Virus record (IMG/VR): IMGVR_UViG_3300009982_000006
Span: 3,993-67,992 of that record
Direction: 5' to 3' (one strand)
Length of the DNA stretch: 64,000 nt
DNA from: a virus
Taxonomy: Duplodnaviria; Caudoviricetes
This document shows positions 31,286-45,795 of the stretch, piece after piece (the first letter of the stretch is position 1; the number at the start of each line of letters is the position of its first letter). The notes under the pieces are model-generated. The model did no database searches. It was given only the letters and a program-made list of their open reading frames with translations, and had not been told where the DNA came from. Position numbers and translations under genes: made by a program.

Positions 31286-33406
31286 TTAATTATAGTTCAT
31301 CTTTTTTAAATCATAAGTTGGCAATATTTCTTTAGGCTTCAAGTTGGTAGACTTAACCTCTGGAGCGCGTAATGCAGCCACTAGGCACATCATTAAAGCA
31401 ATCATCCAATCAAACGGGGTTCTTTCCGCATGATTATATCCAAGCGCCTGATTTAGAAGAATTAAGAACTTAACTCTATGTATATTCCCATTATAAACAA
31501 CAGGATTATTTCCATCAAAATACAATTTTGCGCATTCCAGCTGCATACTGACCTGGAAAGGGCTTGCGCTTTCCGTTCCTGCCAGTGGTTTTTGATCAGG
31601 CTTATTGGGATTACGCGCTGGTGTCCAGTATAGCAACTCATCACATCCCTGTTTATAAAAATATTCTACAAAATGATCCCCTGCACTTCTTTCTATATTA
31701 GCCTTACACCCATAAAATAAACACGCCTTTATAATCTCCTCGTATAGTAAAGAAGGCGTCTTGGGCTTCCCAGCATAAAAGGCTACGGGATAATTCCCTT
31801 TTTCCTCCCCATTAATTACACAGGACTTTTTAAAGACACATATAGTAGCCATACTGCCATGTTCTGCACTAAAAATCCTGACTGTATCTGCCCCTACTAC
31901 ATACTTGTGTGCCGCATTAACCGAATAAACATCTCCCAGACAATTAAAATCATTCTTAACCTCTGGTTCTTCTAAAATTAGCCAATATCCAGAATCGTCA
32001 TCAATGTATGAAACAGAACGTCTATCTTTCCCACTAGCTGGCGCGATCCCATTAGGTAATATAGAAGTGCTATCATACAATCTCGCCCGTCTTAAATATA
32101 CAGGGTTCTCTTCTAGTGACCGGATTTGATCTCTTAACATCTTTTCATTAAATTCACATATACCAGCCTCAAAAGAAAACGCATCAAAAACATCTAAAGG
32201 ATAATCTCTCCTATGCTCCATCAACTGATCATCCTTTAGTTTTGCCCGATCTCGTAATATTTTAGTTCTTGAACCTTCTGTTATCATTCTTCCATCGTTC
32301 CCCATAACAGGTTCTTTGGGGTTATCAATAACACTTCTTCCATATTTATCTATACATCCCGCATATCCTCTTGTAGCAGCCATAAAATATTGAACACATT
32401 TTGTAGGCGTGTTTACTCCATATGGCCGACCGGTTTCTGGATCTATTTTTGTCTGATCAGATTCGTTAAAGAATATTTTATATGCTTCGCCCCCTTCCTT
32501 CTTTTGTCCAACAGTTGTTGGCATATATGCGAATCCTACCTTATTAACACCAACTTCTAATGTTTTACTTAATCGTGACCAATATGAATTGATGTTAACC
32601 TTTACACCTCTCTTTGCAGTTTCATCTGGTACGTTATATGATTGCCGACCAGAATCATAAGAATTAATAGCATTAGACTTATAATCTGCATAACTATTTA
32701 ACCCTTCTCTTTTTACAGCCAAGACGCCCTTTTTCTTTTTCTCTACGGCTTTTACAAATCGTATAAAATTTTCTGAGTCGCTGTCAAATTCAGCCTGAAA
32801 GCATGGCAGCATTGATTTGAATCCATACATGAACATCTTCTGAAAGTTATCCTGACATGCCGTATCATTAAAAGATGTTGTCCCACAGTTTTGATACTCT
32901 TTACGTCCAGCAACAAACCACATAAAAAACATTCCGATAGATGTTGCTCCTTGACGACGACCTTTCAACCTAAGAAGCCCACGACATTCTGTGTGAAGTC
33001 TAAGATATTCATGAAACAAAAAAAACTCTCTATCATCCTCTCTATAATCTGGTTTTTCACCGTGTTCTAATGTCCAATAATTTACGTAACAATAATAAGC
33101 CCCTGGCAGATAAGTCAAATCCCCATTTATGTATGCATAAACTCCTTCTTCAAATCTTTTGTTTTCTCTATCTACCCATTGTTTTTGAATAGGTGTATAC
33201 CCTTGATAGGTTAATTCTTTGGCCGCAATGGCAACTAAATCATCATCCGAAAAGGGGATTTCTGTTCGTCTAAAATATTGTTCTTCTTTTGGAAGATCGG
33301 AATATAATATTTCTTCCCCATCAATAAGCTCCCCCTCTTCAGTAATAATAGATTTACCTAAATCCCTGTATTTGCATAATATCCCCTGGATTAACACTTC
33401 AGCCAT
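31286..33406 (-). CDS. terL: Terminase large subunit
   Basis: Walker A-like KGRRQGATS, Walker B-like YNVPDE, RNase H-like VVGAD; next to the portal. Confidence 0.85.
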   Translation of the reverse strand: MAEVLIQGILCKYRDLGKSIITEEGELIDGEEILYSDLPKEEQYFRRTEIPFSDDDLVAIAAKELTYQGYTPIQKQWVDRENKRFEEGVYAYINGDLTYLPGAYYCYVNYWTLEHGEKPDYREDDREFFLFHEYLRLHTECRGLLRLKGRRQGATSIGMFFMWFVAGRKEYQNCGTTSFNDTACQDNFQKMFMYGFKSMLPCFQAEFDSDSENFIRFVKAVEKKKKGVLAVKREGLNSYADYKSNAINSYDSGRQSYNVPDETAKRGVKVNINSYWSRLSKTLEVGVNKVGFAYMPTTVGQKKEGGEAYKIFFNESDQTKIDPETGRPYGVNTPTKCVQYFMAATRGYAGCIDKYGRSVIDNPKEPVMGNDGRMITEGSRTKILRDRAKLKDDQLMEHRRDYPLDVFDAFSFEAGICEFNEKMLRDQIRSLEENPVYLRRARLYDSTSILPNGIAPASGKDRRSVSYIDDDSGYWLILEEPEVKNDFNCLGDVYSVNAAHKYVVGADTVRIFSAEHGSMATICVFKKSCVINGEEKGNYPVAFYAGKPKTPSLLYEEIIKACLFYGCKANIERSAGDHFVEYFYKQGCDELLYWTPARNPNKPDQKPLAGTESASPFQVSMQLECAKLYFDGNNPVVYNGNIHRVKFLILLNQALGYNHAERTPFDWMIALMMCLVAALRAPEVKSTNLKPKEILPTYDLKKMNYN

Positions 33407-33407
33407 A

Positions 33408-35825
33408 CTACTGCATCATTTGTGGTGATTGTTGTTGCTCTTCTACTTCTTCTTGATCTTCTCCTTCTTGTACTTCTTCTAATTCTTCCTGTTGCTGCAT
33501 AGTGTTTAATACAATCTCCTGTTGCATTTGCTGGTTTTCAACAGTAATTGGGATGCCTACATTCTGCATTACCTGATTTATCAAAGGTTTTAATTCAGCA
33601 GGGACCGGAGTGCCATTGGTAAGACATGTATTGTATATTTGAAGAACTCCTTGTAGTAGTATTTGTTCTTTTTTGCTTTTAGCTTCTGATTGTGATTTCG
33701 CTGTTTCTGCCTGTTGTTTAACTTGTTCAATCTGGGCATCCATTTGTCCTTTTTGCTGCAATGACTGAGCCTGCGCTTCTGCATTCATTCTAACACTTGC
33801 TTCCTGCGCTTGCGCCTGTTGCTTTCTATTCTTTTCGGTCATTGCATCCAGATACATTGTTGCCAATTTATAATTCTTTATTTGTCGAATCTGGAAGGCA
33901 TCTTTAAATGTCAGTAACTGTTCCTGCATACCCACCTGAATCATTTGTTCAAGGATTTGCTTTTCGTATGCTGTCAGCTTCATTTCTACATGTACCTTAA
34001 ACCTGGCATTAATCATAGATTCATCGCCTTCCTTAATCGCATCCTGCCACTCCAGCAATGCACACTTATAAAGAGTTTCCTCCATAAGTTGATTATGAGC
34101 ATTAGGGATGAAGTCGGTAACATTAAATGAAGACTCAGCTTGCCCTTCCGCTAATTTAGCTGCTGTACGATCGCCTACATCTGACCCATCCCTGAATCTG
34201 GGGACTCCCAATAAACCACGCAGCTCATTCTCTATCCCTTCTAATGTCTGAGTAAGTTGCATTATCTTCTGTAAGGTATCATCTGGCGCAGTTGCGCTAA
34301 TGGCAGGCGCTTCTTGTCTTAATGGATCAACACCGCGACTACTCCATATCTCGTTACCCGTTTGATCGAATATTCTCACTACCTCTTCCCAAGGGATTAC
34401 ATTACCATTCCCTAAATCAATATTTCTGGCAGAATGCACATCAATGCGAATACCTGAAGGCCTTAGTTTAGCTATCAGTTGCTTTCGCTTCAATTTTGTT
34501 AACGCATATTCACGCAGCGGCTCCATTGCTCTTTCAAACAATGAAGGGATATACTGACCGTTGTTGAATGGAATAACAATAGAGTAGGAAGAAAGAGATT
34601 CATCAAAATTCAGAAAAGGCAGTATCACTACATCAGGCAGCCCCCAATAAATCATTTTGTGAGCATAAGGCGCATATACTCCTCTATACCATCTGCTTTT
34701 GTCTTTTTTATGTATCCGAGCTTTTTCTGATGTGGGGGCCGGAATACTTTGCTTTGGAGCAATATTTTCATTGCCATATCTATCTGGCTTACTTACATAA
34801 TAATCAGAGGTGCCTACCTTAATTTCAAAATCTATAACATAGACAGAATAGTCATCCCAGGGGCAATTATAATTATAGAATTGATACTCCATCTTCCACA
34901 GGAAATTAAACCCTAACCCTGTGTTTCTTGTAGATGACATTCGCACCAATTCATATATTTCTTTTTCTGTTAACCCGTCTGGGTTTTCTGGAGACCTCCC
35001 ATACTTTGACCTCAAATCCCGAACCTTTAGTGCATACACTTCCCCGATATACGACAACTCGTATTTACCTGTCTCCCCAACAAAATAATTATAAAACATA
35101 TTTTGAGGAACCGGTTTTCGAATGCAGTATTTTTTACCATGACGCTCTATCTTAGTTGACCCTAAATTATGCACAACCAAATCATAAAGACTCTTCGGCT
35201 TTAAAACCCGCATATACTGATTTTCATCCAATATGCACTGTAACTTTTTTTCCAGATTTACTTCTATTGGAAGCCTATCCTGTAATTCAAAATATACATC
35301 CGCTGCCAGCTCGTCATCCGGGACATAGGCATCGGGAGGCTCGACCATAACGCCAGTGCTTTGTTGTACCTGGTTAATTGTTTCAACCTCTCGCATCCGA
35401 TATAACGCGTCTTCTTTTCTATCTTTTTTCTCCTGCGCACTTGACTCGTCAATGGCGGTAACACATGGGTACTCTTCATTTTTGCTCATGCTTTCAACAA
35501 GCGTTAAAACAAATTGAGGCCCGATCATGATAGGGGTCATATCTATTTTAACGTATGCCTTATTACCATCACTTACATTAAAAAAATCAAGGAACTCCGT
35601 CATGTCCTGAGTCCCTGTGGCCCATTTCAAAACCTGAATCCACTTTGCTGCCCTGGCAGAAAAGAAATTGAGGTTGCTGGAGGATTGGGTTTGTTCAGTA
35701 TAAATTCGCTGCGCTATCTTTTCCCCGGTTTCTTTTTTAGCAACCTCTTTAGGATCTGCGAATTGTACGGACAACAATATATCGGTGAAGGGGAAGGCCG
35801 TTTGCCCCGTAGTCATATCTGGCAT
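33408..35825 (-). CDS. Portal protein
   Basis: 805 aa with a C-terminal Q/E-rich barrel-type coiled coil; next to TerL. Confidence 0.75.
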   Translation of the reverse strand: MPDMTTGQTAFPFTDILLSVQFADPKEVAKKETGEKIAQRIYTEQTQSSSNLNFFSARAAKWIQVLKWATGTQDMTEFLDFFNVSDGNKAYVKIDMTPIMIGPQFVLTLVESMSKNEEYPCVTAIDESSAQEKKDRKEDALYRMREVETINQVQQSTGVMVEPPDAYVPDDELAADVYFELQDRLPIEVNLEKKLQCILDENQYMRVLKPKSLYDLVVHNLGSTKIERHGKKYCIRKPVPQNMFYNYFVGETGKYELSYIGEVYALKVRDLRSKYGRSPENPDGLTEKEIYELVRMSSTRNTGLGFNFLWKMEYQFYNYNCPWDDYSVYVIDFEIKVGTSDYYVSKPDRYGNENIAPKQSIPAPTSEKARIHKKDKSRWYRGVYAPYAHKMIYWGLPDVVILPFLNFDESLSSYSIVIPFNNGQYIPSLFERAMEPLREYALTKLKRKQLIAKLRPSGIRIDVHSARNIDLGNGNVIPWEEVVRIFDQTGNEIWSSRGVDPLRQEAPAISATAPDDTLQKIMQLTQTLEGIENELRGLLGVPRFRDGSDVGDRTAAKLAEGQAESSFNVTDFIPNAHNQLMEETLYKCALLEWQDAIKEGDESMINARFKVHVEMKLTAYEKQILEQMIQVGMQEQLLTFKDAFQIRQIKNYKLATMYLDAMTEKNRKQQAQAQEASVRMNAEAQAQSLQQKGQMDAQIEQVKQQAETAKSQSEAKSKKEQILLQGVLQIYNTCLTNGTPVPAELKPLINQVMQNVGIPITVENQQMQQEIVLNTMQQQEELEEVQEGEDQEEVEEQQQSPQMMQ

Positions 35826-35851: not shown

Positions 35852-36397
35852 CTATTTTACCGATATGGCAACAATATCGTCTTTTTCAACTTTTATGATT
35901 CTGCGCTCCTTATTTCCCCAATTATATACAATTTCATAGTTAGCGTAGGGGGTATGGAATACCACCTGCCCTACTTTATACCCATACCCATTAGATATAA
36001 CTTTAGCCCGGTCTATGTACTCCTTTTTGTAGGCGTCTGGCATTTCTAACTCTGATGATGGCCATATACGCTCACATATAATATTTCCATACATTGAATG
36101 GGGGTCGCCATTTTCATCAATTCGCATGAATATATTTTTATTAATCGGGATCGAAAAGAGGCCATCCCCCATTGAATAAACACTCACATCCCCATAAAAA
36201 TAATTATGATGGCATATCAGTACTGTTCCTGGTTGTATATCCTCATTGCCAACTTCTACAATTCCAACCACCGGGTGTTTCTCCCGATGGTTGGTTCTAT
36301 ACTTAGTAGCCACCATTAACTCTACATCGCCAATCACAGCCCGCTCTTTCTGGTCTGGGTTAACCCTCAAAATAATCCCGTTTTTTGTTGGTTTCAT
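35852..36397 (-). CDS. Tandem GroES-like co-chaperonin (two domains)
   Basis: Start ATG 36397 overlaps the GroES stop (ATGA). Domain 1 begins MKPTKNGIILRV; domain 2 GNIICERI...MPDAYKK...RAKVI...KVGQVVF...KDDIVAI follows the GroES pattern. Confidence 0.6.
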   Translation of the reverse strand: MKPTKNGIILRVNPDQKERAVIGDVELMVATKYRTNHREKHPVVGIVEVGNEDIQPGTVLICHHNYFYGDVSVYSMGDGLFSIPINKNIFMRIDENGDPHSMYGNIICERIWPSSELEMPDAYKKEYIDRAKVISNGYGYKVGQVVFHTPYANYEIVYNWGNKERRIIKVEKDDIVAISVK

Positions 36398-36660
36398 ACA
36401 CACGCTATTACATCTTGTTCTCGTAGGCAAAATATCACTTCTCCCTCTATTTCCATTTCAAATCCGGCTGTCATATGGAAATAAGCCTTCTCACCCTTCT
36501 TTATTGTTTTATCTTGAACCAAAGACCCTACACTAAATATCTTTCCCGTCTGAGGTTTTTTCTTTGCTGAATCGGGAATCAAGAGGCCCATCTTCTCCTC
36601 CTCTGGTATATCCCGAATGAGCAACACGTAATTATTTTTAGCCTTTATTTTGTTTTGCAT
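36394..36660 (-). CDS. groS: Co-chaperonin GroES (Cpn10)
   Basis: GLLIPDSAKKKPQTGKIFSVGSLV...LREQDVIACV. Confidence 0.9.
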   Translation of the reverse strand: MQNKIKAKNNYVLLIRDIPEEEKMGLLIPDSAKKKPQTGKIFSVGSLVQDKTIKKGEKAYFHMTAGFEMEIEGEVIFCLREQDVIACV

Positions 36661-36663
36661 ATA

Positions 36664-38262
36664 TTAAAATGTATCTACGATTAAACATTCAGATGTAAGA
36701 AGCATTCCTGCGACACTTGCCGCGTTCTGAAGGGAACATCTAAGCACCTTTACAGGATCAATAATGCCAGCTTCTAATAAATTTTCCACATGTCCTGTTT
36801 TTGCATTCAAGCCAATATCATCCCCATATTCCTGTATCTGTTGCATATATTCAACCTCATCCAACCCGGCATTCCTGATAATCTGCCGAACGGGAGCCTC
36901 CATTGCTGTAAACAATATATCCCATCCTAGTTTATTTTCATTGTATTGCTCAGATGTTATATGTTTTATAGATTTAATGAAAGTAATGCCAGCTCCCGGT
37001 ACGTATCCTTCTTCGTTTGCTGATTTTGCTGCTCTAACTGCATCATCCACCCGATCAACCCTTTCTTTCATTTCAGTTTCTGTTGGACCTCCAACATATA
37101 TAACAGCTATCCCACCTTTCAACCTAGCAATCCTTCTTTCGATGACTGATTTATCATCTTCCCCTTTGGCTTGCGTCAGATTCATTCTAAGCTCATTTAG
37201 TAAATCATCATGAGCCTGAGTGTTCTTTTCTCCCCCTATAATAGTACAGCTATTTTCAGATACAATTACTTTTTGCGCTTTGCCTAAATGCTTCTCCGTA
37301 GCCCTTTCTAATCCAACGCCTTTTGAATCTGTTAAATATGTTGCCCCGGTACATACCGCAATATCTTCCATCACTTCAAACTTGTTTTCTGTAAATGATG
37401 GACACTTTACTATACAAACAGGCGGTATTGTTTTTTGAAGTGTATTCATAATTACAGTTGCTAATGCTTCCCCATCAGAATCTTCACAGACTATCAACAA
37501 TGGTCTACCAGTTTTAATACTGGCTTGAAAAACTGGCGCAAATTTGGCCATATTACTAACTACTTTTTCATATAGCAAAATATTAGGGTTTATCAATTCG
37601 CATGTTTTCTTTGCTTTATCTGTAATAAAATATGGGCTTATAAAGCCTGTTTTTATCTGAAATCCTTCAGATATTTTAATTTCAGTATTAACACTTTTAG
37701 CTTGTTCAATATCTATGATCCCGTCTTCTCCTATCTTTTCAAATGCCTTTGTAACCAAATCCCCAATTGATGGGTCATTATTGGATGAAACGGTAGCTAT
37801 TTTCCTAATAGTTTCAATATCTCCCCCAACTGGCAATGCGTCTTGTTTTATCTTATCAACTATATATTCGACACATTTATCCATTTGTCGCTTTATCGAC
37901 ATTGGGTTGTAACCTTTATCTATCATTTCTAAACCGGCATTAACAATAGCCCTAGCTAATACAATAGTGGTAGTGGTTCCGTCGCCCGCCTGTGTCAACG
38001 TTTTTTCAGCAGCTTCCCTTAACATAATAGCCCCTACATTCTCTACTGGATCGGTCATATGCACAGCGCGACTAACCGTAACACCATCCTTTGTAACTTT
38101 TACAGGCAGGGATCTTGTACCGTAATCAATAACAACTGATTCACTTAGTAAAACGTTTCGGCCATTAGCCCCTAACGTAACAGAAACCGCATTAGCCATT
38201 GTATTGACTCCGATTCTTACTTTGTCTCTTGCTTCTTTTGAAAATAAAATTGATTTGTTCAT
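36664..38262 (-). CDS. groL: Chaperonin GroEL (Cpn60)
   Basis: TKDGVTV, AGDGTTTT, RIARLKGGIAVIYVGG, EEGYVPGAG, GIIDPVKV; no GGM tail. Confidence 0.97.
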   Translation of the reverse strand: MNKSILFSKEARDKVRIGVNTMANAVSVTLGANGRNVLLSESVVIDYGTRSLPVKVTKDGVTVSRAVHMTDPVENVGAIMLREAAEKTLTQAGDGTTTTIVLARAIVNAGLEMIDKGYNPMSIKRQMDKCVEYIVDKIKQDALPVGGDIETIRKIATVSSNNDPSIGDLVTKAFEKIGEDGIIDIEQAKSVNTEIKISEGFQIKTGFISPYFITDKAKKTCELINPNILLYEKVVSNMAKFAPVFQASIKTGRPLLIVCEDSDGEALATVIMNTLQKTIPPVCIVKCPSFTENKFEVMEDIAVCTGATYLTDSKGVGLERATEKHLGKAQKVIVSENSCTIIGGEKNTQAHDDLLNELRMNLTQAKGEDDKSVIERRIARLKGGIAVIYVGGPTETEMKERVDRVDDAVRAAKSANEEGYVPGAGITFIKSIKHITSEQYNENKLGWDILFTAMEAPVRQIIRNAGLDEVEYMQQIQEYGDDIGLNAKTGHVENLLEAGIIDPVKVLRCSLQNAASVAGMLLTSECLIVDTF

Positions 38263-38270
38263 AGTGTGTT

Positions 38271-39023
38271 TTATGGTCTATCTAAGACCCATTTTTGAAT
38301 ATATTTTGAATGAAAAAAAGTAGGATTTAAGTCTTTACCTGAGAACCATAATTCACTTTTAAAAATTTCAGATTGATCTAGTTTAGGATCATGGAACCCT
38401 AGTTCAAAAACATTTTCCTGCATATTTATGACCTTATCTTTCATGACTTCTCTTTTCCTAACAAAACCATAATGTCTCATGTATATCCCAGATAAATATT
38501 TATCTACAGCCGGGGCATCTATTGACTCCCCATCCCCTATAGAGATATATTTTGTCTTAGCTAAACGTATAACCTTAGTACTACAGGGTTGTCTTTCTTC
38601 AGGAACAATTAAGCAATGGTTACAATCTCCCCACATATTCACTCTTCGAATATAATACGCTTCCTCTCCTTCAGCTATAGCTTCTCTTATTATTTCAAAC
38701 CCAGCTTCATGGGTTATCTCGTCTGCTTGTTGTAAATAATAATAATCAGTGTCTAAAAATGATAATGCTAGATTCTGAAAAAAAGCCAATTTTTCTCTAC
38801 CCTTTTGCTTATTCCATTCTTCAACACTCAAAACAGTAACAAATAGGTTATTGTATTCTTTCCCAAGATCATAAAGCAATTCTATAGTATTATCTTCTGA
38901 TTCTATACCAACAACGGATACCTGATCGCACATATCACAAAGGCATCTTATGCTTTCCTGAAAGCAATAATCATATTTTACGCCGTCTTTAATAAACATT
39001 ACGCCGCCTAATGTTTTACCCAT
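38271..39023 (-). CDS. Glycosyltransferase, GT-A fold (GT2-like)
   Basis: DQVSVV...SEDNT, QADE DxD-like motif, C-terminal HYGF. Confidence 0.7.
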   Translation of the reverse strand: MGKTLGGVMFIKDGVKYDYCFQESIRCLCDMCDQVSVVGIESEDNTIELLYDLGKEYNNLFVTVLSVEEWNKQKGREKLAFFQNLALSFLDTDYYYLQQADEITHEAGFEIIREAIAEGEEAYYIRRVNMWGDCNHCLIVPEERQPCSTKVIRLAKTKYISIGDGESIDAPAVDKYLSGIYMRHYGFVRKREVMKDKVINMQENVFELGFHDPKLDQSEIFKSELWFSGKDLNPTFFHSKYIQKWVLDRP

Positions 39024-39741
39024 AAATAAATTTATCTTTTAAATCAATGTGTTGATATTTAGATAACCTACTTTTTACATATTCTCGCCTCATTGTCACC
39101 TCGCCTATTCTATCCTGATGCTTATTGAATACATCCCAAGATACTTTACCTATGTGATCAAACTTATCATATCTCATACTAACTATATCAACATCCTGAT
39201 TACCAGGTTTTCGTTCTATATGATAATTTGAAAACCCATTTGCTTGTATCGACTCCCAAAATTCACTTCCAACATCATATGTCCAATCCTCTTTAGTCCT
39301 AAATCTTTCTATACCGGCTTTCTTTGTAGCCTCACAATCAAACAGCCAGAACCAAGGACTTATTCTATCTTTTATCTTTGTAGCCCCCATGAAGTTCTTA
39401 TCAATTAATTCTCCTGCACTAATAACTTTATCATTAAGCAAATACAAATACCCCCATACATCATCCTTAAATTCTACATCAGTATCAGTAAGAAGTACAT
39501 ATTTTGTTCTTACTTCTTCGTACAGCGCATTCAATGCATTTTCATGACCAACATTCTCTTGGTAGTCAAAAAATGGGATATGATTTTCTCGCAGCCACTC
39601 CTTACTTCCATCTGTACTTCCATTGTCTACCAGCATTAATTTCAACGGTTCCCCCTGATAATGATAATAAACGTAAGATTTTAGCAACAGCTCTACGCAT
39701 GGCAGCTGGTTCCAATTAACAGATAATAATGTTATGTCCAT
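39016..39741 (-). CDS. Glycosyltransferase family 2
   Basis: LSVNWN, LVDNGSTDGS, LLTDTDVEF. Confidence 0.85.
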   Translation of the reverse strand: MDITLLSVNWNQLPCVELLLKSYVYYHYQGEPLKLMLVDNGSTDGSKEWLRENHIPFFDYQENVGHENALNALYEEVRTKYVLLTDTDVEFKDDVWGYLYLLNDKVISAGELIDKNFMGATKIKDRISPWFWLFDCEATKKAGIERFRTKEDWTYDVGSEFWESIQANGFSNYHIERKPGNQDVDIVSMRYDKFDHIGKVSWDVFNKHQDRIGEVTMRREYVKSRLSKYQHIDLKDKFIYG

Positions 39742-40367
39742 TATATTTTTTTAATTATTACTGTACCGCAGGCAGCAAACACCCACTCAATATTTGTTTC
39801 AAAATAATTGGCTTTATATTTTGCAATAGCTTCTTTTTTGTTAGCACAAATGTGGCTATTAGGGATAATACCATTCATATTCACCTCCCCTATCATGTTT
39901 TTTATATATTCTATAACGCTTTCCCCCTTATTCCATCTATCATCATAATCACACAATAAGTCCTCAATTATATAATACCCACTTGGTTTAAGATATTGAA
40001 ATAGCAATGAAAATGTTTTAATCATATCACTACTCATGTGGCTTCCGTCATCAACAACTATATCAAAATAATAAGGATATTGCTCACCAAAGAAAAATAA
40101 ATCCGCAAAACTACTTTGGTCTACAACATGCGTAGTAACCCCATTCAAATATTCATACCCATCTCTTATATCAATACCGTGTATTTCCCCGTTCTCAAAA
40201 TAATCTCGCCACATCAATAGGGACGCGCCTTTATCAATACCTATTTCTAATAGCTTGACCGGCTGTTTTCTAATAGGCGTTAATATCATGTCGTAATATT
40301 GACAATATGAATGCCCCTTACTTGACTTATCAGTTCCATATTTTATAGCTAGATCATCTAAAGTCAT
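39741..40367 (-). CDS. Class I SAM-dependent methyltransferase, sugar O-methyltransferase-like
   Basis: KYGTDK, LLEIGIDKGAS, GIDI, FDIVVDDGSH, YIIEDL. Confidence 0.85.
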   Translation of the reverse strand: MTLDDLAIKYGTDKSSKGHSYCQYYDMILTPIRKQPVKLLEIGIDKGASLLMWRDYFENGEIHGIDIRDGYEYLNGVTTHVVDQSSFADLFFFGEQYPYYFDIVVDDGSHMSSDMIKTFSLLFQYLKPSGYYIIEDLLCDYDDRWNKGESVIEYIKNMIGEVNMNGIIPNSHICANKKEAIAKYKANYFETNIEWVFAACGTVIIKKI

Positions 40368-41122
40368 ATTTTCTTAATTAAGTGTTTAAATTCTTCTTGA
40401 TTATCCTGTAAATACTTTGGGAATGATTCATCTATCTTAACGAACCTCCAATAATCATTGGCCCAAAGAGACTGACCGCTTTCATACTTATATTCCAGGT
40501 GGTCTAGCAGCTCTGGCTTTAATGTTTCAGTATGGGCATATGCGAATAGTTTTTCTCTCATTCTTTCAACGCCACCCATAAAACTCATATGCCACCCGCC
40601 GAAATAAATACCAAAATCAGCGCCGCCATTCCGTATCTCACTAGCGCTTCTTTCTAAAAGATGCTTTCCAGTTACTATTTTGCCTATCCCCCAATTTTGG
40701 ATTCCCTCTAGCAGATTCAAATAAACCGAGTATTTATCCATCTGCAAAGAAGCAATTCCCATTCGTGGTTCATAGAATTGAACCGCTTGCCATCTTGGGA
40801 TTTCATCGAGATCACTTATTATCACAATATCTTCATTTTCTAAATCAATCATTTCCCCATAATTCAAACAAGCATCTCTTTGGTATTTTTCATTATCCCA
40901 CGCATCCCCGTTATTAGGCATATCATTAACAACTATATGCCTGATATTATAAGATGAAAACAAATGCTTGTTCTGCGCAAATACCAATTCTTTTGGCTCA
41001 CCTGTATGCGTATATGTAGATTCTACCAGAACATGTATTGGATTAAGAGGTTTTAACTCCTCGCATCTCAACTTCAATAATTCCAACTCGTTAAAAAAAC
41101 TAAATGCATCAAAGACTTTCAT
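40364..41122 (-). CDS. Glycosyltransferase family 17-like, copy 1
   Basis: FFNELELLKLR, VLVESTYTHTGEPK, WDNEKYQR, ISDLDEIP, GWHMSF. Confidence 0.8.
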   Translation of the reverse strand: MKVFDAFSFFNELELLKLRCEELKPLNPIHVLVESTYTHTGEPKELVFAQNKHLFSSYNIRHIVVNDMPNNGDAWDNEKYQRDACLNYGEMIDLENEDIVIISDLDEIPRWQAVQFYEPRMGIASLQMDKYSVYLNLLEGIQNWGIGKIVTGKHLLERSASEIRNGGADFGIYFGGWHMSFMGGVERMREKLFAYAHTETLKPELLDHLEYKYESGQSLWANDYWRFVKIDESFPKYLQDNQEEFKHLIKKI

Positions 41123-41862
41123 TTAATTAAGTGCTTAAGTTTTTCAATATTTTTTCTAATGTATTCTGGATATGATTCATCTATGTCTACATATTTGTAT
41201 TCAACATCACTCCAAAAATTATCTAACCCATCTATCAAATAGTGATTATGGTCAGTATTTAATTCTGTATGGGAAAATGATTCTAGCTTCTCATGCGCTC
41301 TATTATGGAGCCATGTGAAGTGAAACCCTGCATTATGTATAGATATTTTATACCCGCTATTCCTAATATCATCTGGCGTTTTATCTTTTAAATATTCCCA
41401 CCGCATAATTCTTGACCTATCCCATTTTAAACCTGCATCTTTGGCGTTCAAATAATAAGAATATACGCTCATTGATAATGAAGCAAACCAACTCCCATTA
41501 CTATCAGCGAATTTATCCACGATGTGAGCCATAACTATTTCATCTACATCTCCTACTATAACTATATTATCATCACCAGGGTTCATCATATTTAACGCTG
41601 GCTTTATCAAATTACGCTGATACCGTTCCCTATCCCACGGATTTTCTGTTTCTGGGAATTTCTCTACTGTAACTGATATAATAGGCCATTCTGCATATTC
41701 TTCTTTTACCTGGCTAAAATATAAAGGCTTTTCTTTACCTGAAAATGTATAAGCCGCCTCTACTAAGATATGCGTCACCGGCTCTTTGCACTTAGACAAT
41801 TCATGCAATCTTATGTCTAAAAGCTCTCGCTCACCATTGTACAAAAAACAATCGTAAATCAT
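41119..41862 (-). CDS. Glycosyltransferase family 17-like, copy 2
   Basis: YDCFLYNGERELLDIR, LVEAAYTFSGKEK, WDRERYQR, VGDVDEI, GFHFTW, KLESFSHTE. Confidence 0.8.
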   Translation of the reverse strand: MIYDCFLYNGERELLDIRLHELSKCKEPVTHILVEAAYTFSGKEKPLYFSQVKEEYAEWPIISVTVEKFPETENPWDRERYQRNLIKPALNMMNPGDDNIVIVGDVDEIVMAHIVDKFADSNGSWFASLSMSVYSYYLNAKDAGLKWDRSRIMRWEYLKDKTPDDIRNSGYKISIHNAGFHFTWLHNRAHEKLESFSHTELNTDHNHYLIDGLDNFWSDVEYKYVDIDESYPEYIRKNIEKLKHLIK

Positions 41863-43280
41863 GAAATAAATTTATCTATTGAATACATCACATCATCCAT
41901 ATTATATTGCGTGCATGGTGGCTTTTTAGCATCAACTACACATCCTTTACCAGTTGTGCCACCAACCACATCCGACCAACACTTAGGAGTATCGCAGGAC
42001 TTTTCTTTTTGGATAACACATATATTTGATAAATCAGGATGTATGTGAGAGGGATCAACTGAACCAAAGAATATAACAGAAGGCACTCCAGTAGCTACCG
42101 CAATTGAAGCAGGCCCAGAATCTACGCCAATAAAATAGGAAGCCCCAGCCACAACATACATTAAAAAATTATTCGCAATAGTTTTCATCTCAATCGCTCC
42201 TTCTACTGGCTCATGCTTACTTAATCCTACCTGGATTACCGTATACCCTTTCTTATTTAAGTATTGCACAACTTCTCGCCAGTTAACACCGTACACGTTC
42301 CTATATGGTTGATCGCGGTCATCAATATGAAGAACTATATATCGTTTAAATATCCTGTTATGTTCTCCTATTACAAAGTTCAATTTAGGATTTTTTACTT
42401 CTCCGTCAAATATTCCCGCTGCCTCGTAATAACTTTTAAGATGTAGTTGTTTTGGATTTGCTTCGTAACTCCCATCAAGATCAATTACTGTTGTTGGCAC
42501 TCTATTATCTAATTGCGAGATATGGAATACAGGGTAGTGATGTTGCGCATAAACCATAGCTAATTCTAATGGCATATCAATAGCTACCTTATACCCTTTT
42601 TTATGGTAATATTCAAGAACTGGCTCAATAGCCACACAATCCCCAAGCGCCGCACTTCGTTTTATCACTATCGTAGGAGTATACGGCTTATGGAAATTGC
42701 CATGAAACCCAAATGTAGGCTGTATTGGTTCGCGCAGTTCAAATGAAAACTTATCGGCTAATTCTGTTGGGGCAAACATTATCCCGTAATTCTCTTCTAA
42801 ATAAGGTCGATATATTTTGGCGATGCAATTATCTTCCGGGTGAAGCGGCATAATAAAATCGTCTGTAGCAAGTATATTCTGTAGCCTTTTTGATCGAAGA
42901 GAAAAGCCGCCATTCCCAACATTTGGGCCTTCGTTTTCGAGCCATGCGGCTCCGATATAATCATGCTCAAAAAACTCATCAGACCATGCATTTGCATCAA
43001 GAACGTATCCGTCATGTTGAATTATCAATGCATAATCGGTATCAACATACTTATAAAGCTCTTTAATTACAAACTTGGAATATTCTTCTTTTGTTGAAAT
43101 GGTGTCAATCTTTACTATTTCGAATGGGAACTTTGGATTATAGGCTTTAATATCGGTAAGAAATTTTGTAGCGCCAAATTCAACCTGATATTGAGATTTC
43201 TTTATTGCAGTAATAGCATCACCATAATTTTTACAGTCAATACAAACCAATGTAACGTTCGGTAATTTCAGTTTATCCAT
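41859..43280 (-). CDS. DUF5672-like domain fused to a GT9-like (GT-B) glycosyltransferase
   Basis: N-terminal IQHDGYV...DYIGAAW...VGNGGFSLRS; C-terminal RSAALGD and FIGVDSGPASIAVATGVPSV. Confidence 0.75.
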   Translation of the reverse strand: MDKLKLPNVTLVCIDCKNYGDAITAIKKSQYQVEFGATKFLTDIKAYNPKFPFEIVKIDTISTKEEYSKFVIKELYKYVDTDYALIIQHDGYVLDANAWSDEFFEHDYIGAAWLENEGPNVGNGGFSLRSKRLQNILATDDFIMPLHPEDNCIAKIYRPYLEENYGIMFAPTELADKFSFELREPIQPTFGFHGNFHKPYTPTIVIKRSAALGDCVAIEPVLEYYHKKGYKVAIDMPLELAMVYAQHHYPVFHISQLDNRVPTTVIDLDGSYEANPKQLHLKSYYEAAGIFDGEVKNPKLNFVIGEHNRIFKRYIVLHIDDRDQPYRNVYGVNWREVVQYLNKKGYTVIQVGLSKHEPVEGAIEMKTIANNFLMYVVAGASYFIGVDSGPASIAVATGVPSVIFFGSVDPSHIHPDLSNICVIQKEKSCDTPKCWSDVVGGTTGKGCVVDAKKPPCTQYNMDDVMYSIDKFIS

Positions 43281-44184
43281 TTGTTTCGTTTAGTAGTTTA
43301 TTAAATCTATACTCCAAGGCTCCTTGCTTTACAAAACTATACCCATTAGGGCCAGTTGGAAATGTGTTGGGGTATTCCACACAAACCTCTAATATACGAG
43401 GAACTTTCATTGCATCTGCAATATGCCATGCAAGACTTTGATTGCCTATGAAAAACTTACACCCTTTTATCGCTTGCGCTACTTTATAAAAATCATTAAC
43501 CGCTAACCTATATATATAATTACCAGATTCATCTCCTAAACCCCATTCTTTACAAAAAGAATCACATTCGTCTTTGGTGCCAATAAAAACTATTCTATTT
43601 GTGTGATTTTTTAGAAAGTGATATGATATATATGGATTTCTATACCGCGCTGTTCGGTTTATCACAATCTGGCCTATGGGATATGTTTCATTACATAAGT
43701 GTTCAACCTTGCCTCTGCCACCTATACTTATACATCCTGCTTCATAATGACCATCATGCCTCTTAACTCTTTCAGGATAATTTACATAAATCCAAGGCTT
43801 GTCTAATTCACATTCAAGCTGAGGATAAATAAGCGAAGGCCATTTATGTATATCGCCGCCTGGTAATGGCATTCTGGCATCATGTCTTGTTAAATCATAA
43901 TCAAATGTAACTTCTTGCCCATCCCAAATCTCAAATCTTTCTACATACTCTTGCGATTCTATAAGGGGCTTCATCATATCAAACATCTGCCTATTCATAC
44001 ATACCTGCGTTCCATCTTCCGATTTTACAGGATGTGCATCATTATGACCATAGTTTGCAGGAAGATTTAATCGCTGATAGATTACAGCTTTTTGACCATT
44101 TTTTTCAGCTAAATGTTTTATGCCTGGTAAAACAGTAATCAAGTCGCCGCTATTGAAAGAATGCTTAAAAGTTAAAGAATCCAT
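43273..44184 (-). CDS. GT9-like (GT-B) glycosyltransferase
   Basis: HSFNSGDLI, FFIGNQSLAWHIADAMKVP. Confidence 0.65.
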   Translation of the reverse strand: MDSLTFKHSFNSGDLITVLPGIKHLAEKNGQKAVIYQRLNLPANYGHNDAHPVKSEDGTQVCMNRQMFDMMKPLIESQEYVERFEIWDGQEVTFDYDLTRHDARMPLPGGDIHKWPSLIYPQLECELDKPWIYVNYPERVKRHDGHYEAGCISIGGRGKVEHLCNETYPIGQIVINRTARYRNPYISYHFLKNHTNRIVFIGTKDECDSFCKEWGLGDESGNYIYRLAVNDFYKVAQAIKGCKFFIGNQSLAWHIADAMKVPRILEVCVEYPNTFPTGPNGYSFVKQGALEYRFNKLLNETNG

Positions 44185-44238: not shown

Positions 44239-44514
44239 ATGGCAACAGCAACCTTAATAGCAGTACCGGTATACCAAATCAACTCCAACAATGTGATTAA
44301 CAGGAGTTTATATCCGTATGGGATGAGCATTCAATTTGCCGGTGCTACGCTGAATGTTCAGCCAAATTCCTTTTCCTCATTAAATGATTTGCAGGCTGGC
44401 CGACAAGCAGGTGGCGCATTAATCTACAGCAAGATATTAACTGCCGCAACAGGAGATACTGTCTTCTACAGCAGCTTAACCCCTGCTCAGATCGCCACAT
44501 TAGCCAATGCTTAA
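44239..44514 (+). CDS. Lone opposite-strand small protein (91 aa), possibly structural
   Basis: A/T-rich start region, own terminator, composition rich in A/T/S/N/Q. Confidence 0.65.
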   Translation: MATATLIAVPVYQINSNNVINRSLYPYGMSIQFAGATLNVQPNSFSSLNDLQAGRQAGGALIYSKILTAATGDTVFYSSLTPAQIATLANA

Positions 44515-44545
44515 TGCCTGATTTTTTCATTGAATTTGTTAGTTG

Positions 44546-44578
44546 AATGCCCCGCACTTCTGCGGGGTATTTTTATTT
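44546..44578 (+). terminator. Intrinsic terminator between convergent genes
   Basis: AATGCCCCGCA-CTTC-TGCGGGGTATT followed by TTTATTT. Confidence 0.8.
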
Positions 44579-45300: not shown

Positions 45301-45717
45301 TTAGTACTTTTTACCATGCATATGTGGTCTTGAAGCATTATATCTCATTTTGGCTTTTATGTGCCATTCAAGGTCTATGTTTTTTGAATGAGCCAAATCC
45401 ATTATTCTAATCATTGCATCCGCAAGCTCGTCAGCGAATGAGTTCTTAACCTCAGATCGAAACCAATTAAGCCACGCTTCATCATTATTATCAACAACAT
45501 TAAAAGACCATCTTGACCCATTTTGAGTTAAGTCTTTATCAACTCGATACCTTGTAAGTGCATCATAGTAATTATTAGTTCTATCTGCTTCCATCGCCTC
45601 TGAAACTTCAGAAACGATAAGCATTAACATTTCTCCTACATTTCTTTCTTTATCCCAGAATCCCTTATTACGAGCATTTTCGTGTATTTGCTTTGCTAAA
45701 TCTTTTAATACAGACAT
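45301..45717 (-). CDS. MazG-like nucleoside triphosphate pyrophosphohydrolase
   Basis: LMLIVSEVSEAMEA, ELADAMIRIMDL, KMRYNASRPHMHGKKY; start moved to ATG 45717. Confidence 0.85.
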   Translation of the reverse strand: MSVLKDLAKQIHENARNKGFWDKERNVGEMLMLIVSEVSEAMEADRTNNYYDALTRYRVDKDLTQNGSRWSFNVVDNNDEAWLNWFRSEVKNSFADELADAMIRIMDLAHSKNIDLEWHIKAKMRYNASRPHMHGKKY

Positions 45718-45795
45718 AATAGAATTAATAATGCGATTATAAAAATTGAACACATGATAATAAAAAATGTATCACCATAAAACTTACGCATAAAA

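Follow-up and report, generated by a model that had tools for sequence, protein, structure and literature searches.

Our analysis showed that a phage genome carries a cluster of seven soluble carbohydrate enzymes, g1 to g7, directly before its chaperonin, portal and terminase genes. The best explanation, to which we give an even chance, is that the cluster assembles a short, partly O-methylated glycan on a phage protein in the cytoplasm, using host nucleotide sugars.

Layout and genomic context of the cluster

The DNA analysed here (the window, 64,000 nucleotides) belongs to an uncultured, soil/plant-associated phage of Bacteroidota, and no cultured phage was found in the clade of the g1-g7 relatives. 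As the first-pass annotation had described, the cluster consists of seven co-oriented ORFs on the minus strand between 38271 and 44184, whose neighbours overlap by 1-8 nt. Its reading of six glycosyltransferase-like genes and one sugar O-methyltransferase-like gene was upheld by Pfam, profiles and a structure model of g1. The features are as follows.

44545-44572, plus strand: intrinsic terminator of the sp91 gene (12-bp stem, 6 G-C pairs, T-tail on the plus strand)
44239-44514, plus strand: sp91, a 91-aa small protein, the eighth conserved gene, between g1 and the upstream genes
43273-44184, minus strand: g1, GT-B glycosyltransferase of GT9 (heptosyltransferase-like) fold (AF2 model, pLDDT 87, and Foldseek)
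42681-43280, minus strand: g2, N-terminal domain (aa 1-200), DUF5672, GT-A fold (PF18922, E 3e-16)
41859-42680, minus strand: g2, C-terminal domain (aa 201-473), predicted TibC/BAHT-like GT-B with four-Cys finger (Foldseek, VIA, hhalign)
41119-41862, minus strand: g3, GT17-family glycosyltransferase (PF04724, 69.5 bits, cut-off 26)
40364-41122, minus strand: g4, GT17-family glycosyltransferase (PF04724, 90.8 bits, cut-off 26)
39741-40367, minus strand: g5, SAM-dependent sugar O-methyltransferase, MycE/TylE type (profile A6)
39016-39741, minus strand: g6, GT2 glycosyltransferase (PF00535 Glycos_transf_2, 40.2 bits, cut-off 23.3)
38271-39023, minus strand: g7, GT-A glycosyltransferase, GmaR/SpsA-like (profile A3)
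35852-38262, minus strand: GroEL, GroES and a double-GroES-like gene, directly downstream of g7 (PF00118, E 4e-61; phrog_5725)
31286-35825, minus strand: portal and large terminase genes (phrog_6547 portal, E 2e-33; phrog_6681 TerL, E 4e-66)

The cluster is continuous with the chaperonin and head genes. The spacing between g7 and GroEL is only 8 nt, the gaps within the GroEL/GroES stretch do not exceed 8 nt, and no minus-strand terminator was found in 38271-44184, from g1 to GroEL; the same strand reads on into GroEL/GroES, portal and TerL. The cluster had also been placed at the head of the virion operon. This head is putative, since sp91 and its terminator precede g1 and the hairpin at 44545-44572, read on the minus strand, has no T-tract.

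No membrane segment was found in g1-g7, the top 19-residue Kyte-Doolittle mean being 1.56, in agreement with the earlier reading. Each catalytic Asp or DxD-type motif that was checked is conserved.

The fusion protein g2

Pfam identified both DUF5672 and Glyco_transf_9 (E 2e-7) in g2, above their cut-offs. The DUF5672 domain matched GfsA, BoGT6a, PBCV-1 A64R, glycogenin and LH3 with tied VIA Z scores of 11.4-12.8; the value for the A64R GT-A domain (2p72), 12.4, is shared with many GT-A enzymes and denotes structural likeness only.

By structure comparison and profile, the GT-B half appears nearest to TibC, a protein O-heptosyltransferase, and nearer to it than to the LPS heptosyltransferases. 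Foldseek gave 4e-12 for TibC versus 1e-7 for WaaC/WaaF. VIA gave a Z of 22.5 for 4rb4 (rmsd 2.8 Å, 262 residues) versus 19-20.5 for the GT9 LPS enzymes, and hhalign gave 95% probability (E 3.4e-8, 227 columns) for TibC versus 77-86% over 84-98 columns for the LPS heptosyltransferases. The catalytic Asp is common to g2 and the TibC/Aah BAHT enzymes (4rap, 4rb4; TIGR04414), with D214 paired with D110. Both have a four-Cys finger after the GxDSG strand: C429, C434, C447 and C456 of g2, conserved in 23 homologues, are placed where TibC has its iron finger, and the first two Cys and the next Trp align (C429/C434/W435 with C339/C342/W343). WaaC and WaaF share the fold of g1 and of this domain, and g2 also carries the N-terminal GD motif and the donor-site motif D(S/T)G, but WaaC and WaaF lack the Cys finger, their NCBIfam models score 12-24 bits here (cut-offs 135-467), and there is no sign here of their acceptor, Kdo2-lipid A.

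However, g2 also differs from TibC. It scored 21 with TIGR04414, far below the cut-off of 200, the heptose-binding R286 and W305 of TibC are not conserved in it, and it has R322 and Y326 in place of T226 and K230. Where TibC has an N-terminal beta-barrel, g2 has its GT-A (DUF5672) domain instead. The phage has no autotransporter, and TibA-like repeats were not found in its virion proteins.

g1 and the small protein sp91

g1 has no Pfam match. Its AF2 model found WaaC as the best Foldseek match (E 1.9e-6), followed by 3tov, WaaF and TibC, so that it is closer to the LPS enzymes WaaC/WaaF than to TibC. It has an invariant G13-D14 pair, which the alignment matches to the motif with the catalytic Asp in g2. 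No other enzyme of the cluster is kept as widely, and g1 is also present in relatives without g2.

These matches bring in remodelling of the host envelope as a serious rival, although we consider it rather improbable. The enzymes would then work on the cytoplasmic side of the inner membrane, where their substrates would be lipid A-core or undecaprenyl-linked intermediates of the O-antigen, capsule or general O-glycan of the Bacteroidota host, and host flippases would export the altered glycan, for example to block superinfection or to keep progeny off debris. GT9 is the LPS heptosyltransferase family, and loci for O-antigen and capsule typically contain GT2 enzymes and MycE/CmcI-like methyltransferases. 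Furthermore, the 1375-aa fibre of the phage carries a GDSL/SGNH esterase and the phage therefore deals with an acylated surface polysaccharide. The absence of membrane segments does not count against this rival. LPS heptosyltransferases, the archetype of GT9, are soluble or peripheral too and make use of host flippases, and the same is true of most GT2/GT4 enzymes whose substrates are undecaprenyl-linked. The first-pass argument that a cluster without membrane segments or flippase has a virion-protein acceptor is weak for this reason. Known seroconversion modules (gtrABC, oac, wzy), on the other hand, are sporadic morons with membrane enzymes; Pfam found no module of that type among 57 ORFs of this genome outside the cluster and the virion and chaperonin genes, and g2 is closer to TibC than to WaaC or WaaF.

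The pairing of g1 with sp91 also speaks against envelope remodelling. sp91 is almost uncharged, shows 56-75% identity in the nearest relatives (L002-L004), and has no match in Pfam, PHROG or PDB. In iterated HMM searches, 50 of 54 g1-bearing loci had it as the opposite-strand neighbour of g1, and the adjacency survives rearrangements and even the replacement of g2-g7. g1 and sp91 are thus the constant unit of the cluster. The sp91 HMM matched 289 representative clusters at E<=0.001, mostly of 75-100 aa. In the few long forms the domain corresponds to residues 1-80; among them are T/G/S-rich proteins of 618 and 982 aa that begin with it. One of these has a match to PHROG 1645 'virion structural protein' (E 1e-20), and in another long form the C-terminal part, residues 293-432, matches a chain present 18 times in PDB 9efk. 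In a few phages, then, sp91 heads fibre-like virion proteins, and the constant unit is a glycosyltransferase with a small soluble protein that is elsewhere fused to virion-type proteins. This makes sp91 a candidate acceptor or partner of g1, which is speculative. As it is oppositely oriented and has its own terminator, it could be expressed at a different time than the cluster.

The enzymes g3 to g7

The two GT17 enzymes are paralogues with 34% identity; g3 is present only in L002-L004, and g4 in a subset of related clusters. The A6 profile of g5 matched 3ssm (MycE, E 3e-26) and 8ia9 (TylE, 1.4e-25); g5 also matches the phrog_21658 methyltransferase (E 1e-27), and Methyltransf_24 of Pfam is slightly below cut-off. 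g6 has its DTD motif at residues 86-88, and its weak NCBIfam matches are to EPS, colanic-acid and teichuronic-acid enzymes, which is consistent with envelope remodelling. g7 has no Pfam match; its A3 profile found GmaR (E 5e-4) and SpsA (0.03), and the flagellin O-GlcNAc transferase GmaR is its best solved relative. Q99, D101 and E102 are invariant in g7, which occurs in 32 related loci and is widely kept alongside g2.

The same enzymes would fit another target, namely a host cytoplasmic protein modified for take-over or anti-defence, or a free methylated oligosaccharide or glycoside metabolite. Every enzyme is soluble, the substrates of MycE and TylE are sugars of small-molecule macrolides, and TibC-like and GmaR-like enzymes act on proteins generally, so a viral protein is not required. 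We regard this target as improbable. To inactivate a host protein, one transferase that adds a single sugar is enough, whereas four to nine enzymes are kept per cluster, with morphogenesis genes beside them and a small phage-specific protein as partner. Nor did Pfam find genes for aglycone synthesis among the 57 longest ORFs (76-343 aa) that belong neither to the glycan cluster nor to the virion/chaperonin block.

Modularity across relatives

Homologues of g2 number more than 2,500, mainly on phage contigs of 60-80 kb. Four complete close relatives lack g2 and have other GT2 and methyltransferase genes in its stead. The cluster is therefore modular, and the seven-gene set is one variant and no fixed pathway. 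In distant relatives it lies directly upstream of TerL and portal, and this position before the packaging genes is fixed across very divergent phages (portal about 25% identical), which again argues against envelope remodelling. In the relatives L023, L026 and L029 the genes after the cluster are not head genes and point the other way, which counts against our best explanation. The DUF5672 genes of cyanophages adjoin DegT and CDP-sugar dehydratase genes, a point in favour of envelope remodelling.

The first-pass annotation had reported no flippase, Gtr, nucleotide-sugar or base-hydroxylating gene. This holds for the window, where Pfam found no flippase, Gtr or NDP-sugar enzyme among the 57 ORFs, but not for the relatives, whose clusters include NDP-sugar epimerase/dehydratase genes and further methyltransferases.

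An unlikely alternative: glycosylation of phage DNA

The cluster might also glycosylate a modified base of the phage DNA for restriction evasion, as in T-even phages and TET/5mYOX-linked clusters. Phage DNA glycosyltransferase clusters (T4 alpha/beta-GT; TET/5mYOX- or ThyA-linked) likewise contain several soluble enzymes. Phage GT-A/GT-B enzymes akin to LPS enzymes add sugars to 5hmC, heptose or Kdo in some cases, and their clusters can sit near terminase or structural genes (bioRxiv 10.1101/2023.12.21.572611); arabinosylation of 5hoC is also known (PMC13326640). A MazG/WDGH-type pyrophosphatase is encoded at 45301-45753, 1.1 kb upstream of the cluster. DNA glycosylation is nevertheless unlikely, and its probability is very small. 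To our knowledge, every known route needs a hydroxylated base, which either a ThyA homologue or a C5-methyltransferase with TET supplies, and no thymidylate-synthase homologue, TET/JBP or C5-methyltransferase was found by Pfam among the 57 ORFs. The phage lacks its own DNA polymerase, its PHROGs matches comprising a clamp, an SSB and a DnaC-like loader only. Among solved structures TibC matches g2 best, and T4 beta-GT was not among the matches listed by Foldseek or VIA. The enzyme families differ as well: we know of no DNA pathway with the sugar O-methylation and GT17 enzymes of this cluster.

A proposed pathway

Because there are seven soluble enzymes and no sugar-nucleotide genes among the ORFs searched, the stepwise cytoplasmic pathway proposed earlier, with several sugars, O-methylation and host NDP-sugars, is well supported. 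The virion-protein acceptor proposed with it gains from separate evidence that favours a protein: g2 is TibC-like with a Cys4 finger, g7 is GmaR-like, g1 is paired with sp91, which in some phages occurs fused to fibre proteins of virion type, and the search gave no route to a hydroxylated DNA base. Fold or distant homology leaves the identity of this acceptor unfixed. The location of the glycan on the virion, its capping by methyl groups and its role as a shield, as put forward in the first-pass annotation, are hypothetical.

There are precedents for viruses that assemble glycans on proteins of their own. According to the account of Freeman et al. 2023 cited in PMC11256854, the mycobacteriophages Che8 and Rita use their own soluble glycosyltransferases, with virion proteins as the proposed cytoplasmic target, as here. 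As described there, their capsid-protein glycans were shown experimentally, their hosts are Actinobacteria, at least two glycosyltransferase genes lie near the far genome end, and the enzyme families are other than GT9/BAHT-like, GT17 and DUF5672; the putative case here has a Bacteroidota member as host and 7-8 genes before the head genes. In PBCV-1, viral cytoplasmic glycosyltransferases (A64R and partners) and methyltransferases build an O-methylated glycan (PMC9614988), as we propose here, although its host is a eukaryotic alga and its glycans are N-linked.

In the scheme that we infer, together with the acceptor, the sequence of reactions, the choice of sugars and the biological role, a GT-B enzyme, either g1 or the TibC-like domain of g2, would place the first sugar on a Ser or Thr residue of the acceptor. 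Extension of the chain would fall to the GT-A domains (g2 DUF5672, g7 and g6) and the two GT17 enzymes, and the MycE-like g5 would O-methylate a sugar hydroxyl. TibC and Aah are likewise soluble cytoplasmic enzymes, and in TibC-TibA and Aah-AIDA-I the glycosyltransferase gene as a rule adjoins the gene of its substrate (PMC4358343). The acceptor would most likely be a virion component, and sp91, encoded beside g1 on the other strand, may speculatively be named as its leading candidate.

Gene layout and enzyme families

The cluster consists of seven minus-strand ORFs between 38271 and 44184, which overlap one another by 1–8 nt. These genes and the adjoining sp91 gene are as follows.

43273–44184, minus strand, g1, glycosyltransferase (GT) of GT9 type
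41859–43280, minus strand, g2, fusion of DUF5672 with a GT9-like domain
41119–41862, minus strand, g3, GT17 enzyme
40364–41122, minus strand, g4, GT17 enzyme
39741–40367, minus strand, g5, predicted sugar O-methyltransferase
39016–39741, minus strand, g6, GT2 enzyme
38271–39023, minus strand, g7, putative GT2-like enzyme
44239–44514, plus strand, sp91, gene for a 91-aa protein
44545–44572, plus strand, strong terminator of the sp91 gene

The GroEL gene begins 8 nt past the end of the cluster and is followed by GroES, a double-GroES-like gene, portal, and large terminase (TerL). No terminator-like site was found on the minus strand, either within the cluster or between it and GroEL, which agrees with the first-pass annotation in so far as it placed these genes in the virion operon. 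Its further claim that they head that operon is less secure. The sp91 gene, 54 nt from the g1 start and on the opposite strand, stands upstream with its own terminator and complicates the start, and the hairpin at 44545–44572 has no T-tract on the minus strand, so read-through from genes upstream of g1 is possible.

The whole phage genome, an IMG/VR virus record, is 67,992 bp long, and the window covers most of it. A script showed that its two ends are inverted repeats of 123 bp that match exactly. CheckV gave a completeness of 59%, which may be too low in view of these repeats and of complete relatives of 68–79 kb. A megablast search with 10 kb against phage records returned no match.

The gene descriptions in the first-pass annotation were right. 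Four proteins (g2, g3, g4, and g6) scored above Pfam's own cut-offs, and the other three were placed by structure or profiles. There was no Pfam match to g1, but AlphaFold (pLDDT 87) models it as a GT-B enzyme of GT9 type, with WaaC (Foldseek E 1.9e-6), 3tov, WaaF, and TibC as structural matches. Its G13-D14, the G-D motif with the GT9 catalytic Asp, is invariant in 29 sequences. The match of the g1 profile to TibC was not significant. Both g3 (69.5 bits, DVD at 105–107) and g4 (90.8 bits, DLD at 104–106) match Glyco_transf_17 (PF04724), and thus have the gathering score and D-x-D motif of CAZy family GT17; they are paralogues with 34% identity. g6 belongs to GT2, with 40.2 bits for Glycos_transf_2 (PF00535) against a cut-off of 23.3.

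The g5 protein fell 0.5 bit below the Methyltransf_24 cut-off. Its family profile (A6) matches two macrolide-sugar O-methyltransferases, MycE (3ssm, E 3e-26) and TylE (8ia9, E 1.4e-25), in the methyltransferase core only; by homology, g5 would be a sugar O-methyltransferase of this type. For g7 there was no Pfam match; its family profile matches two GT-A enzymes, GmaR (E 5e-4) and SpsA, which suggests a GT2-like identity. The highest 19-residue hydropathy mean in any of the seven proteins was 1.56, which bears out the earlier statement that none has an obvious transmembrane segment. Taken together, these enzymes must assemble, in the cytoplasm and from host nucleotide sugars, a multi-sugar product with O-methylated residues.

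A TibC-like domain fused to DUF5672

The 473-aa g2 protein contains DUF5672 and Glyco_transf_9 (PF01075, residues 333–427, 30.9 bits against a cut-off of 22), and its AlphaFold model (pLDDT 92) shows two domains. Our comparisons showed that the catalytic domain is nearer to TibC, a protein O-heptosyltransferase of the bacterial autotransporter heptosyltransferase (BAHT) type, than to the LPS heptosyltransferases. With residues 201–473, the best Foldseek match was TibC (4e-12), followed by 3tov (3.5e-9) and by WaaF and WaaC (1e-7). VIA superposed the same residues on TibC with a Z-score of 22.5 (2.8 Å, 262 residues), against 19–20.5 for the GT9 LPS enzymes. The profile alignment by hhalign to TibC (ETEC H10407 sequence) covered both lobes (probability 95%, E 3.4e-8, 227 columns), whereas those to WaaC (77%, 98 columns) and WaaF (86%, 84 columns) covered the C-lobe only.

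The residue-level agreement is partial. D214 of g2, part of a G213-D214 pair invariant in 23 sequences, aligns with the catalytic base D110 of TibC, and C429, C434, and W435 align with C339, C342, and W343. The Fe ligands in TibC are C339, C342, C358, and C370 (PMC4358343). All four g2 cysteines, C429, C434, C447, and C456, are conserved, the latter two being matched to TibC by similar spacing only. At the sequence level, g2 thus has the four-Cys insertion in the C-lobe that forms the iron finger of BAHT. However, the ADP-heptose-binding residues Thr226, Lys230, Arg286, and Trp305 of TibC correspond, on our reading of the alignment, to R322, Y326, L373, and S392 and are not kept, which leaves ADP-heptose in doubt as the donor. 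At the donor site, g2 shares the motif D-S-G with WaaC and WaaF. The score of g2 for TIGR04414, the BAHT family model, was 21.3 bits against a cut-off of 200, and where TibC has an N-terminal beta-barrel, g2 has the DUF5672 GT-A domain. These differences indicate that g2 is a distant BAHT-like enzyme outside that equivalog. Of the proteins scanned in this genome, none matched an autotransporter-type family in Pfam or PHROGs.

The DUF5672 half (residues 1–200) has a GT-A fold, with about equal VIA Z-scores (11.4–12.8) on GfsA, GT6 enzymes, PBCV-1 A64R, glycogenin, and LH3. A literature search on DUF5672 returned nothing relevant. In Burkholderiales, free-standing DUF5672 genes are paired with a GT4 gene, and in Roseateles and Rubrivivax they come after giant ALTTAQ-repeat proteins. 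At one Roseateles chromosomal locus (L089:1040–10753), and at L087, L094, and L105, the DUF5672 and GT4 genes directly follow giant ALTTAQ proteins of about 31 repeats. The Burkholderiales loci resemble a protein-glycosylation locus, though this is only a hint, and could reveal the role of DUF5672.

Distribution and modularity of the cluster

At E ≤ 0.001, full-length homologues of the g2 fusion number 2,504, and many of them lie on contigs of 60–80 kb. None was found in cultured phages, where tblastn matched the DUF5672 half alone, in cyanophages. In GTDB genomes it is confined to contigs of phage size (72–78 kb), which were binned with Chitinophagaceae, Cyclobacteriaceae, and other Bacteroidota. 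The gene contexts of relatives were taken from IMG/VR and GTDB loci; searches for such loci with a single g2 or GroEL sequence gave no match, while alignment-based searches succeeded.

Across 78 IMG/VR loci the cluster is modular. g1 and g2, usually with g7, repeatedly occupy the position immediately before TerL and portal, including in phages whose portal is only about 25% identical, and the GT17 genes, the methyltransferase, and the GT2 gene vary. The complete set of seven was present only in the three nearest relatives (L002–L004). Some clusters contain, in addition, NDP-sugar epimerase/dehydratase genes and further methyltransferases, among them RMNT_CmcI (rhamnosyl O-methyltransferase) types. 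At two loci (L014:8262–9287 and L033:9030–10004) the epimerase/dehydratase genes are immediately upstream of the g2 homologues, which suggests that some relatives, unlike this phage, make their own modified sugar donor.

A search of relatives seeded with TerL is not biased toward g2. One TerL clade (about 33% identity) had no cluster genes within 10 kb upstream. Four relatives, complete by CheckV, share the GroEL-GroES-portal-TerL block and have no g2 anywhere, but keep g1, preceded by a different GT2 gene and other methyltransferases. Since g1 is kept while g2–g7 vary or are replaced, the pathway is a swappable cassette built around g1.

The g1-sp91 pair

We iterated an HMM from the four closest sp91 sequences, and with it 50 of the 54 loci that bear g1 proved to have a homologue of sp91 no more than about 100 bp from g1, in every case on the other strand. 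In g2-type loci this homologue is upstream of g1 and divergent; in the GroEL clade it lies on the downstream side, separating g1 from GroEL, and is convergent. The gene is monocistronic, on the strand opposite the whole late region, and more conserved than its neighbours (56–75% identity, against about 50% for g1).

Searches of sp91 against Pfam, PHROGs, PDB, and Atlas gave no credible match, and a word-index search for longer forms found none. An exhaustive profile search yielded 289 representative clusters, nearly all of 75–100 aa, and a handful of longer proteins with the sp91 domain at residues 1–80. Two of these, rich in T/G/V/A/S, are encoded directly downstream of g1 (L016:5879–8827, 982 aa; L017:6652–8508, 618 aa), and one of the two matches PHROG 1645, 'virion structural protein' (E 1e-20). 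Each of these loci holds two more short sp91 paralogues upstream of g1. In another long form, the C-terminal part (residues 293–432) matches a chain of which PDB 9efk contains 18 copies (E 1.5e-5). Such an architecture, in which a small module at the N-terminus carries variable extensions resembling fibres, would be expected of a virion-anchoring domain.

Two features of sp91 were considered and rejected as evidence. The C-terminal 'LTPAQIATL' resembles one ALTTAQ repeat unit, but it occurs just once and Pfam gave no match, and the conserved Thr81, considered as a glycosylation site, resembles a helix N-cap.

The acceptor

A Pfam scan was made of 57 ORFs, the longest (76–343 aa) outside the cluster and the virion/chaperonin block, including those in the 4 kb beyond the window. 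The only matches were two ECF-type sigma factors, SSB, a DnaA-C-like HTH protein, XRE-type regulators, a Lar-like restriction-alleviation protein (E 9e-4), a TreK-like terminal-repeat protein (E 4e-27), and a WDGH/MazG-type nucleotide pyrophosphatase; the PHROGs search contributed a clamp, a DnaC-like loader, and an endonuclease. The pyrophosphatase gene (45301–45753; phrog_9236, E 4e-35) is 1.1 kb upstream of the cluster, and is also found upstream of g1 in two relatives (L041 and L124).

The known routes of phage DNA glycosylation all begin from a hydroxylated base made by a ThyA (thymidylate synthase) homologue or by a C5-methyltransferase with TET/5mYOX. No ThyA homologue, TET/JBP/5mYOX, or C5-methyltransferase was found among the 57 ORFs at E ≤ 0.001, although ORFs with no Pfam match could conceal a novel one. 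Modification of phage DNA thus lacks its prerequisite here, and we consider it very improbable.

Host envelope glycans are a more serious alternative. Soluble GTs routinely act on lipid-linked acceptors, and g1 resembles LPS enzymes more than TibC. In a 1375-aa fibre-like protein (8328–12455; 22% Ser/Thr), residues 573–743 form a GDSL/SGNH esterase domain, which suggests a receptor-modifying deacylase acting on host surface polysaccharide, so that such polysaccharides matter to this phage. However, O-antigen conversion of the gtrABC type uses a GtrA flippase, a GtrB bactoprenol transferase, and a membrane-bound GtrC. The 57 ORFs include no flippase, Gtr protein, or nucleotide-sugar enzyme, so the absences listed in the first-pass annotation, base-hydroxylating genes among them, hold in this set, and the seven cluster proteins have no transmembrane segment. 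We regard an envelope target as unlikely but credible, and targets of other kinds as improbable, and leave part of the probability unassigned.

A phage protein, probably of the virion, is an acceptor for which we put the chances as even. It is favoured by the TibC-like g2 and the GmaR-like relatives of g7, the g1-sp91 pairing and the virion-type sp91 fusions, the fixed position of the cluster before the morphogenesis genes, and the failure to find a DNA-base pathway. It is less than certain because fold does not determine acceptor, and because of the LPS-like g1, the fibre esterase, and the lipid-linked acceptors of soluble GTs. No analysis here lent support to the shield role or the methyl cap that the first-pass annotation proposed. 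Ser/Thr-rich stretches occur in the 1375-aa fibre and in a 169-aa protein but are not diagnostic, and self-BLAST of the virion proteins revealed no internal repeats like those of TibA. A further virion protein of 1292 aa (21587–25465) weakly matches the crAss-virus muzzle C-terminal domain (26.2 bits against a cut-off of 27), a possible sign of a podovirus tail distantly related to the crAss-like type.

A broader reading, which we offer tentatively, is a widespread and hitherto undescribed protein-glycosylation system of uncultured Bacteroidota phages, in which a core GT9-fold transferase and the small sp91 protein, encoded divergently or convergently to it, as virion-anchoring acceptor, would be joined by swappable extension modules, including a bifunctional fusion of a TibC-like metal-finger O-glycosyltransferase with DUF5672.

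Significance

Work cited in PMC11256854 documents phage-encoded virion glycosylation in a few mycobacteriophages, and chloroviruses, which are giant algal viruses, have methylated glycans on their capsids (PMC9614988). Our literature search found no report of virion self-glycosylation for phages of Gram-negative or Bacteroidota hosts, and searches on glycosylated Bacteroidota phage capsids and on heptosyltransferases acting on phage fibres returned nothing relevant. As far as we could find, there is also no report of a BAHT-like/DUF5672 fusion, of GT17 enzymes in such a cluster, of the g1-sp91 pair, or of how large this group of uncultured Bacteroidota phages is. BAHT-like, GT17, and DUF5672 enzymes are types previously unlinked to phages.

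To judge from the fusion enzyme, for which more than 2,500 homologues exist, this is the pathway of a very large set of environmental phages. If the system proposed above is real, it would give DUF5672 its first function and would be, as far as we found, the first phage-encoded virion glycosylation for Gram-negative hosts. The g1-sp91 pair makes the acceptor question directly testable by co-expression of two genes. If the acceptor is a virion protein, the cluster would provide a compact, soluble, and modular protein-glycosylation toolkit, and would also widen the known surface chemistry of phages, on which their adsorption, their stability, and their recognition by hosts and predators depend in part.
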